This document shows positions 20,959-53,723 of a stretch of DNA of 64,000 nucleotides, one piece after another; position 1 is the stretch's first letter, and each line of letters begins with the position of its first letter. Under the pieces are notes generated by a model. It was not told the DNA's origin, did no database searches, and saw nothing but the letters and a program-made list of their open reading frames with translations. This stretch comes from Octopus vulgaris. Its lineage: Eukaryota. The stretch spans positions 66,960,001 through 67,024,000 of the forward strand of contig OX597827.1 of the NCBI GenBank assembly GCA_951406725.2, written 5' to 3'. The position numbers and the translations under genes were made by a program.

Positions 20959-20962
<4 letters not shown>

Positions 20963-21066
20963 CCTACTCGATTAGCCAGCGGGGTGGCGTCATTCGAAGG
21001 CTAAAACAATGCGAACGCATTGTGACCAGCGATGTGTAACAACATCTGATGGTCTGGTCGGTCACG
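20959..21066 (+). mobile_element. Solo tail b of SINE family C (or the 3' end of its partner LINE) within (TA)n
   Basis: Matches the reverse complement of 22760-22875. Confidence 0.75.
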
Positions 21067-22093: not shown

Positions 22094-22144
<51 letters not shown>

Positions 22145-22154
22145 CATATATATA

Positions 22155-22715
22155 TACAAATGAGGGTGAGCACTAGAGTCGACCACATACTGGTTAATCT
22201 CTCATATTTATGTATAAATTTATATATTGTATCCCTGGTTTTTATGTGCTAAGCCACTTGGTGATAAATTGATGGTATTATTGAATTAATACTAACTTAT
22301 TCACCCTCATTTGTAAATTTAATTATACTGCAGTAAATAGTTTATGCAGTATTCGTTTCCAGAAGTCTTATCACACTTTTGGCGGGGGAATTTGAATCAT
22401 AGCTGCAAATACAATCGATTGAACCGCACGTGCGTCTCACGCTGCATCAAAATTTAACGTGCGATTTAATAAATTGCATTTTAGACAAACTTCTGCTGAA
22501 GAATTATAGATATTATGTAAGTAAAATTGCATATTACATTAATAATGAAACAATTGTCCAGAGTTAATCTATTTTTTCGTTATTCTTCACTTGCCCTACG
22601 TTAAATGTTGTGTTATTTCTCCTTGGAAACAATTTTTAGTGGCTATGCCATAGCGGATCTATTTTTAGCACTAGAGTAGACCACATAGTGGTTACTCTCT
22701 CATATTTATGTATAT
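22155..22715 (+). mobile_element. Terminally redundant (498-bp period) HHR-bearing element in (TA)n
   Basis: agcactagagt..ctctcatatttatgtata at 22169 and 22667; internal HHR; 15-bp inverted piece at the 5' junction. Confidence 0.75.
22488..22565 (+). ncRNA. Type I hammerhead ribozyme
   Basis: AACU(U)CUG-CUGAAGA-AUUAU..AUAAU-GAAAC-AAUU-GUC^CAGAGUU. Confidence 0.8.
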
Positions 22716-22756
22716 ATATATATATACCTAATATATACCTATATATATATATAAAC

Positions 22757-23063
22757 CACGTGATCACGTGACCGACCAGACCATCAGATGTAGTTACACA
22801 TCGCTGGTCACAATGCGTTCGCATTGTTTTAGCCTTCGAATGACGCCACCCCGCTGGCTAAGCGAGCAGGCCGACAGAAGAAAGAGAGGGAGAAAGAGTA
22901 GTGAAAGAGTACACCAGGGATCACCCACCCCCCTGCCGAAGCCTCGTGGAGCCTTTTAGGTGTTTTCGCTCAATAAACACTCACAACGCCCGGTCTGGGA
23001 ATCGAAACCACGATCCTGCGACCGCAAGTCCGCTGCCCTAACCACTAGGCCATTGCGCCTCCA
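22757..23063 (-). mobile_element. SINE family C, tail b
   Basis: Homologous to 60713-61022. Confidence 0.88.
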
Positions 23064-23715: not shown

Positions 23716-24126
<411 letters not shown>

Positions 24127-53218: not shown

Positions 53219-53723
53219 ATATTTTATAATTATATTCAAATATATAACAAGGGGTCGGCTTCATGCCTCACTACGGACCGTAAGAAATGGAGATTCTAAG
53301 GTAGTAAAAAGGACTTTAGCGTCTATTTCTTACGGTGAGAGGTGAGGTATAAAGCCAAACCCTTGTTATAATTATGTATTTAATTATAAAATATTTTATA
53401 AAATTTACCTGTAAGGTTATTATTTCGAACTGGTTACCTGATAAAATTATTATTGATGTACATGTATGAATGTATGTATGTAAGTATGTATGTACGTATG
53501 TCTCTCTGTATGTATGTATATATACGACAGGCTTCTTTCAGTTTACATCTACCAAACCCACTCACAAGGCTTTGGTCAGCCTGCCCGAGACCATAGTAGA
53601 AAAAAAGCAAGATGACACGCAGTGGGACTGAACCCTGTTTCATTCAGATGAAATCTTCAGGATTCCTGAAGATTTCATCTGAATGAAACAGTTCTAGTCC
53701 TGTAGAAGCTCCTTCTATAAATA

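Follow-up and report, generated by a model that had tools for sequence, protein, structure and literature searches.

Introduction

Animal retrozymes were defined by Cervera and de la Pena (2020, PMC7229834), who named Penelope-like elements (PLEs) as strong candidates for their mobilization, and Li, Clavereau and Pollet (2026, 10.64898/2026.07.22.740005) tied retrozymes to pLTRs by phylogeny, leaving the mechanism open. In the parts of both papers that are drawn on here, the enzyme that moves animal retrozymes is proposed, not shown. For PLEs, the sections of PMC11167929 used here report that two internal reverse transcriptase (RT) start sites produce the PLE tail, that in vitro the start site shows no strand difference, hammerhead cleavage is not needed and unprocessed RNA is the main substrate, and that the later integration steps are still unvalidated. 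In the corresponding sections of PMC8557442, EN+ PLEs are described as giving inverted, 5'-truncated copies, as often carrying a 30-40-bp tail at one end, and as targeting microsatellites. A short palindromic stem III is the mark of the PLE-type hammerhead, which is thought to cleave slowly and as dimers (excerpted from PMC6765202).

Structure of the window copy

The locus studied here lies in a 64-kb stretch of the Octopus vulgaris genome (G000:C14:66960001-67024000; hereafter, the window) and is an old copy of a repeat of about 500 nt with no coding capacity. A single full unit of 498 nt occupies 22169..22666 on the forward strand (u coordinates are window position minus 22168). Its first block, 22169-22216, recurs at 22667-22714 with 3/48 mismatches, which gives the spacing of 498 and the 48-bp redundancy described in the earlier note; the recurring block (22667..22714, forward strand) is read as the start of a second round. 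The unit has a GC content of 31.9%, the ORFs within it are all ≤45 aa, and neither a tRNA nor an RT + GIY-YIG ORF was found in it. No second copy of the 498-nt unit was found within the 64-kb window.

The long arm reads through one site A in its first round (22209..22216, forward strand) and has its 3' end at the next (22707..22714, forward strand; ..CTCATATTT|ATGTATA), 155 nt past the predicted hammerhead cut. A predicted hairpin, AGAGT..CCAC ATA GTGG..ACTCT (22673..22698, forward strand), lies immediately 5' of this site. The arm then passes, as had been reported, into degenerate (TA)n, which forms the right flank (22715..22755); the left flank (22095..22154) is likewise a (TA)n target, the sequence that arm ends of sample 2 (below) mostly meet.

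Between the left flank and the unit, positions 22155-22169 are the exact reverse complement of 22301-22315 (15 bp), again in agreement with the earlier observation. A 15-bp inverted piece is expected by chance in the region with a probability of the order of 1e-6 (hand arithmetic from base composition), and this one ends at site B (22301..22315, forward strand; ..CACCCTCATTT|GTA), the family's second fixed 3' end, 100 nt past site A. By the end rule of the family, 22155..22169 is thus a short arm on the reverse strand, corresponding to unit positions 133-147 and terminating at start site B. The earlier note had recorded this inverted 15-mer and inferred a single priming site; the 15-mer is better read as a second arm begun at site B, 255 nt past the cut. 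A predicted hairpin, GGTG...CACC, lies immediately 5' of site B (22260..22305, forward strand). The window copy as a whole therefore comprises an A arm of 546 nt and a B arm of 15 nt, with one base (22169) in common.

The locus is also flanked by near-identical repeat fragments in opposite orientation (20960-21066 and 22756-22860; 99% over at least 67 nt), which probably represent a short interspersed repeat present twice.

Copy number and subfamilies

In the 2.8-Gb genome the family amounts to hundreds of dispersed copies. The 19-nt site-B motif (u130-148) had 499 exact genome matches and the hammerhead 3' motif had 432, against 0 for each of the reversed controls. Besides an initial genome similarity search, in which the best 40 of 2679 candidates were scored, three samples of loci were analyzed: sample 1 by BLAST similarity (120 loci at 61 places, the duplicate L084 left out), sample 2 by the site-B motif (90 loci at 75 places, among which L193 is a chance match to the motif), and sample 3 by the hammerhead motif (34 loci). 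The nearest copies were 93-95% like the window unit, a young subfamily with a 493-nt unit was 74-76% like it, and a further subfamily was about 70% like the 493-nt one. Among the young 493-nt sister arrays, L207 (G000:C1:60458870-60461640), L208, L161 and L318 hold between 2.6 and 5.6 units, have CCGAAGA as core and GTA as triplet, and are the best material for a bench test. L083 and L084 (G000:C14:66.12-66.13 Mb) are one insertion that a local duplication has placed at two points about 10 kb apart; a truncated LINE adjoins its B end.

Two fixed ends and back-to-back arms

Across the family the arms end at site A (about u41-48, 155 nt past the predicted cut) or at site B (about u143-147, 255 nt past it). 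The 3' ends were 42 A and 47 B of 99 arms in sample 1, 47 A and 69 B of 119 in sample 2, and 17 A and 25 B of 49 in sample 3, and TA adjoined 112/116 of the A or B arm ends in sample 2. The earlier note had proposed priming about 150 nt downstream of the cut, which fits the end of the long arm and leaves out the second site; likewise, its expectation of one fixed 3' end with variable 5' ends among genomic copies holds for the 5' ends, and the fixed 3' ends are two. Homologues with an empty site were found for 6/135 places, and 5/6 of them already carried short TA runs; such runs hide target-site duplications, which in animal retrozymes exceed 4 bp when present. On the idea that the enzyme itself adds the TA runs de novo, L083 is uninformative because the truncated LINE abuts the insertion.

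The arms frequently occur in back-to-back (5'-to-5') pairs, of which 84 were counted (35 + 42 + 7 by sample, with L045 entered twice in sample 1). Seventy were A+B, none was A+A, two were B+B, and 12 had one unclassed arm, mostly truncated. In both B+B pairs (L146 and L324) an arm is interrupted and the outermost end is A. Sample 2 was selected for B, and is therefore informative only on the partner arm being A. The lengths of paired arms were uncorrelated (rho 0.05, 39 pairs), and the junctions between them ranged from 15 bases in common to gaps of 57. In L298 (2016-7740), an LTR-retrotransposon-like element with an 886-codon frame sits between a B arm and an A arm, which are 5.7 kb apart; the insert is not a PLE ORF.

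Twin priming of the L1 type gives 5' inversions, and LINEs are abundant in the flanks of these loci, so that a LINE enzyme might have copied the repeat and inverted it in the L1 manner. We regard this as hardly credible: there is neither a poly(A) nor a LINE-like tail, the inverted arm begins at a fixed site, and the two arms overlap by hundreds of bases with independent lengths, which would not be expected of twin priming on one linear template.

The 5' ends of the arms were scattered. In sample 1, 9/99 lay at the predicted cut (p 0.001 versus uniform), yet other intervals of the unit hold up to 10, and in sample 2 the count was 4/119 versus a mean of 3.1. The idea that the cut site sets the 5' ends was rejected, as other intervals were equally full and the effect did not repeat in sample 2.

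Wrap-around and arrays

Wrap-around, seen in the window copy as the 48-bp redundancy, was found in other copies as well, with arms longer than one unit in 29/99, 15/119 and 4/49 cases in samples 1 to 3. The longest arms (5.62, 3.37, 2.95 and 2.62 units) all belong to the young 493-nt subfamily, and no arm of the window subfamily exceeded 1.58 units (99 arms, sample 1). Slightly more than one round of reverse transcription had been suggested for the window copy; wrap-around is indeed a property of the family, but a length of little more than one round is unsafe for so old a copy. As the copy is aged and young sister arrays reach 5.6 units, its 1.1 units may represent a collapsed longer array: older arrays may have been shortened by recombination, and the original length at the window was not necessarily 1.1 units.

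Arms extending across at least two cut sites numbered 6/99 in sample 1 and 7/119 in sample 2, with up to six cut sites crossed, which means that a linear monomer released by the cut was not the template. Within an insertion, the two arms and every unit belonged to a single sequence type. The distance within a locus was smaller than the median distance to other loci at 14/14, 16/16, 10/10 and 8/8 loci, and smaller than that to the nearest other locus at 7/10 and 5/8 loci of the young subfamily and at 3/14 and 1/16 of the old copies. The three units of L143 had no differences over the places compared and were 1.4-1.7% from the nearest other locus, and the units of L131 had 0-2 differences among themselves.

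The predicted hammerhead

The motif words of a type I hammerhead are present at 22488..22565 (forward strand), where the earlier note had located them: AACTTCTG (22488-22495), CTGAAGA (22496-22502), GAAA (22547-22550), GTC (22556-22558) and CAGAGTT (22559-22565), with the predicted cut after 22558. Stem II is long (44 nt), and stem III is a minimal palindrome, ACAATTGT (22550-22557). An Rfam search of the window gave no match at the gathering score, only TA-driven chance matches (E up to 5). The minimum-energy fold of the isolated motif was not a hammerhead (z -0.09), and neither single-sequence nor self-dimer folds contained the full hammerhead; the dimer reached -30.0 kcal/mol versus -9.4 kcal/mol per monomer.

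Across copies, a recognizable core was found in 88/108 anchor matches (CTGATGA 36, CCGAAGA 28, CTGAAGA 14, CCGATGA 8, and two others), with GTT (33), GTA (28) or GTC (27) as the NUH triplet; the young arrays have the CCGAAGA core. Among 38 haplotypes, pairs 1-5 of helix I were kept in 33-36 and pairs 2-5 of helix II in 36-37, with exchanges at pair 1 of helix I (G-C 29, A-U 6), at its pair 4 (U-A 16, U-G 10, C-G 7) and at pair 2 of helix II (U-A 29, C-G 8). The first pair of helix II forms in 8/38 haplotypes and is U.U in 20. These counts cover helices I and II, since the search anchor dictated stem III, and related copies have changes in common. The covariation across copies supports the call of a predicted hammerhead ribozyme. 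In L028 a damaged core, CTGATGG, is present in both arms, so that insertion still took place from a template whose ribozyme was probably inactive.

Two further hammerhead-like features were observed in the window. An inverted repeat (23726-23984) encloses, at 23876-23944, a CTGAAGA...GAAA motif whose stem III is the palindrome CGATCG; it resembles a separate PLE end. At 53638-53688, the two strands each carry a hammerhead-like core, placed back to back (CTGAAGA TTTCATCTGAAT GAAA).

The form of the RNA template

Four presumed-RNA assemblies were compared with the window copy and gave only short, diverged pieces. For the sister subfamily, contig 21 of run X3 (presumed RNA; 523 nt, depth 192) aligned to the L207 array over its whole length, without gaps and with 17 differences. 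All 17 variant letters are present in the genomic trimer L143, which has two further differences. The contig is 493 + 30 nt long, and the 30 letters that open the covered stretch return unchanged as its last 30, as would be expected of a closed 493-nt loop assembled from 31-letter words. The same loop would come from a tandem transcript or from DNA, and the contig is therefore only a weak hint of a circle, for the sister subfamily and not that of the window. As circles, the window unit and the L207 unit folded better than 25 shuffles (z -3.3 and z -5.1).

These data bear on whether the template was a circle or an uncut linear tandem transcript, on which a PLE enzyme would have primed twice while the hammerhead was weak or idle. 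Such a transcript would account for 5' ends that ignore the cut and for arms that cross up to six cut sites. It would also fit the non-canonical helix II junction and the variant cores, the use of unprocessed RNA as main substrate in vitro (PMC11167929, sections cited above), and the finding, in the part of 10.64898/2026.07.22.740005 drawn on, that 8/9 Xenopus retrozyme dimers were uncleaved in vitro. However, the helices covary across subfamilies, the arrays are uniform inside and different between loci, the closed 493 + 30 contig gives its weak hint of a circle, and the units fold better as circles than shuffles do (z -3.3 and -5.1 versus 25 shuffles); we consider the linear transcript unlikely, and a circular RNA is probably the template.

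Penelope-like elements in the same genome

Intact PLEs are present in the same genome, with 148 GIY-YIG matches when the best 150 of 6136 candidates were scored. Many of the matches lie in a 781-codon frame, and RVT_1 and GIY-YIG were confirmed on partial frames. The octopus PLEs appear Neptune-like, a class called from the TA target and the cysteine linker as given in the part of PMC8557442 consulted for it. The autonomous RT + GIY-YIG elements end in (TA)n and have tails of about 38 and about 30 nt. In all three two-armed PLE insertions seen (L223, L246 and L258), one end has the 30-38-nt tail and the other lacks it.

The loci L241-L257 represent a young intact Neptune-like PLE with a 781-codon RT + GIY-YIG frame preceded by an ORF-like region; it has a (TA)n target, a tail of 38 nt and TTGATAA as the core of its hammerhead-like motif. 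L258, L260 and L214 belong to a second PLE family with a CCGAAGA or CTGAAGA hammerhead core and a tail of about 30-40 nt; the first pair of stem II in their hammerhead is U.U, as in the retrozyme.

None of 50 PLE loci (0/50, from the 148 GIY-YIG matches among the best of 6136) resembled the unit beyond AT-rich sequence, and no arm at 169 places (60 + 75 + 34) was seen running into a PLE ORF on its 5' side. The class of the mobilizing enzyme is thus read from the insertion geometry, and a partner element was not found by sequence. The PLE-type hammerhead and ends would also suit a unit that is the detached pseudo-LTR of an autonomous PLE, its arrays arising from later local DNA amplification, a route that Li et al. 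2026 propose in the portion of 10.64898/2026.07.22.740005 drawn on here; moreover, our PLE search was confined to the top-ranking GIY-YIG candidates (150 of 6136 scored). This origin is nevertheless very improbable, given that none of the arms at the 169 places was seen to join a PLE ORF at the 5' side, that arms wrap into the unit, and that multi-unit arms keep the A/B end rule.

A 490-bp family with the same layout

The window contains a second hammerhead-bearing repeat, a young insertion of a 490-bp family (9682-10591, reverse strand) with 1.86 units, which the earlier note had called unrelated. BLAST of the 490-bp family against the 498-nt unit gave no match. When phased by the cut, its global alignment with the window unit scored above 200/200 shuffles (z 3.9), and that with the 493-nt unit had a z of 3.1, with 2/200 shuffles as high; for the stretch before site B alone, the alignment with the window unit was not significant (z 0.7).

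The layout is also shared. The 490-bp family ends at 124-131 and 233-240 nt past its cut, about 105 nt apart, and all of its two-armed loci (6/6, among 11 loci) are A+B. In the 498-nt family, alignment folding of 44 cut-to-B segments gave a GGTG..CACC hairpin directly 5' of site B, and in the hairpin before site A the inner four pairs were kept in 40-43/44 and the next two poorly. A GGTG..CACC hairpin also precedes site B of the 490-bp family, and all four sites of the two families loosely share a hairpin followed by CT..ATT, a likeness judged by eye. The alignment score and the shared layout together indicate that "unrelated" was too strong and is probably wrong: the 490-bp family is probably a distant cousin of the 498-nt family, the alternative being convergence on one enzyme. 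A 55-nt piece of the 490-bp family was observed at L213:343-397, with a GIY-YIG remnant about 1.1 kb downstream of it.

Proposed mode of insertion

We think it likely that the family is a non-coding retrozyme with a predicted hammerhead, inserted by a borrowed Penelope-like enzyme that would copy one RNA, probably a circle, from each of the two nicked strands at a (TA)n target. The borrowed enzyme is probably of the Neptune type. Tandem copies would be transcribed, and the hammerhead would cut the transcript to monomers, likely as a dimer because stem III is palindromic, and the monomers would circularize. A PLE protein would then nick both strands of a TA run, with one 3' end priming RT at site A and the other at site B, both sites lying immediately past a hairpin. 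The resulting cDNAs would extend for lengths independent of each other before their ends were joined, often via a few common bases. For the window copy, the A cDNA would be the 546 nt and the B cDNA the 15 nt. Against this scheme stand the PLE tails of 30-38 nt rather than 100, the lack of a partner in 50 loci, and the weak first pair of helix II.

More tentatively, and with somewhat more doubt than belief, a circular ribozyme RNA could have evolved a pair of hairpin-marked starts, separated by 100 nt, to which a dimeric Penelope-type enzyme is recruited, one subunit per strand and strictly A + B, and the 498/493 and 490 families could be an old circle lineage that kept its structure and lost its sequence likeness. 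If true, rolling-circle retrotransposition of an animal circRNA would here have left its footprint directly in the genome, and the combination of a dimeric enzyme with a circle would explain the tail-plus-inversion structure of PLEs in general.

Comparison with known systems

The element at this locus is itself old and ordinary, of a kind already known; the interest of its family lies in the 100 nt between the two ends and in the strictness of the A+B pairing. The family gives a counted, near-exceptionless rule for making both ends of an insertion on a short non-coding template. As its two start sites are widely spaced and distinguishable, models of two-strand priming and of a circular template become directly testable in vitro. 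A literature search, covering sources other than subscription journals and Repbase/Dfam, found no description of a cephalopod retrozyme or of PLE twin priming.

The comparisons that follow are limited to the parts of the cited sources used here. The Chlamys MRC1-type elements (PMC8557442) are alike in being non-autonomous PLE derivatives, with pLTRs and head-to-tail multimers. Their 3' end resembles that of an autonomous partner and they are mostly without a canonical hammerhead, whereas the octopus family has kept the hammerhead and no partner was found by sequence in 50 PLE loci. With PLEs the family shares partial tandems with an inverted 5'-truncated copy, a TA or microsatellite target, and the short palindromic stem III. 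However, EN+ PLEs (PMC8557442, PMC11167929) carry an ORF and have a tail of 30-40, while the octopus unit is without an ORF and its ends are 100 nt apart; its arms follow the one-A-one-B rule without clear exception, in contrast to the absence of a strand difference in vitro in PMC11167929.

Like animal non-LTR retrozymes, the octopus repeats are non-coding and poor in GC, show no LTR structure, carry a single type I hammerhead in each unit and occur in forms from monomer to multimer. Its unit is about 495 nt, against 170-400 nt (PMC7229834) or 51-972 (10.64898/2026.07.22.740005) for animal retrozymes, and its stem III is of the minimal palindromic PLE type; a canonical hammerhead with tertiary contacts between loops 1 and 2 characterizes animal retrozymes. 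Circles and cleavage have been shown for animal retrozymes, and for the octopus family cleavage is predicted and a circle is probable. The two fixed ends and the inverted arms are not among the features described for animal retrozymes in these sources. In summary, the family is new and its kind is known: it works like a PLE-mobilized element and has the testable features of a retrozyme.
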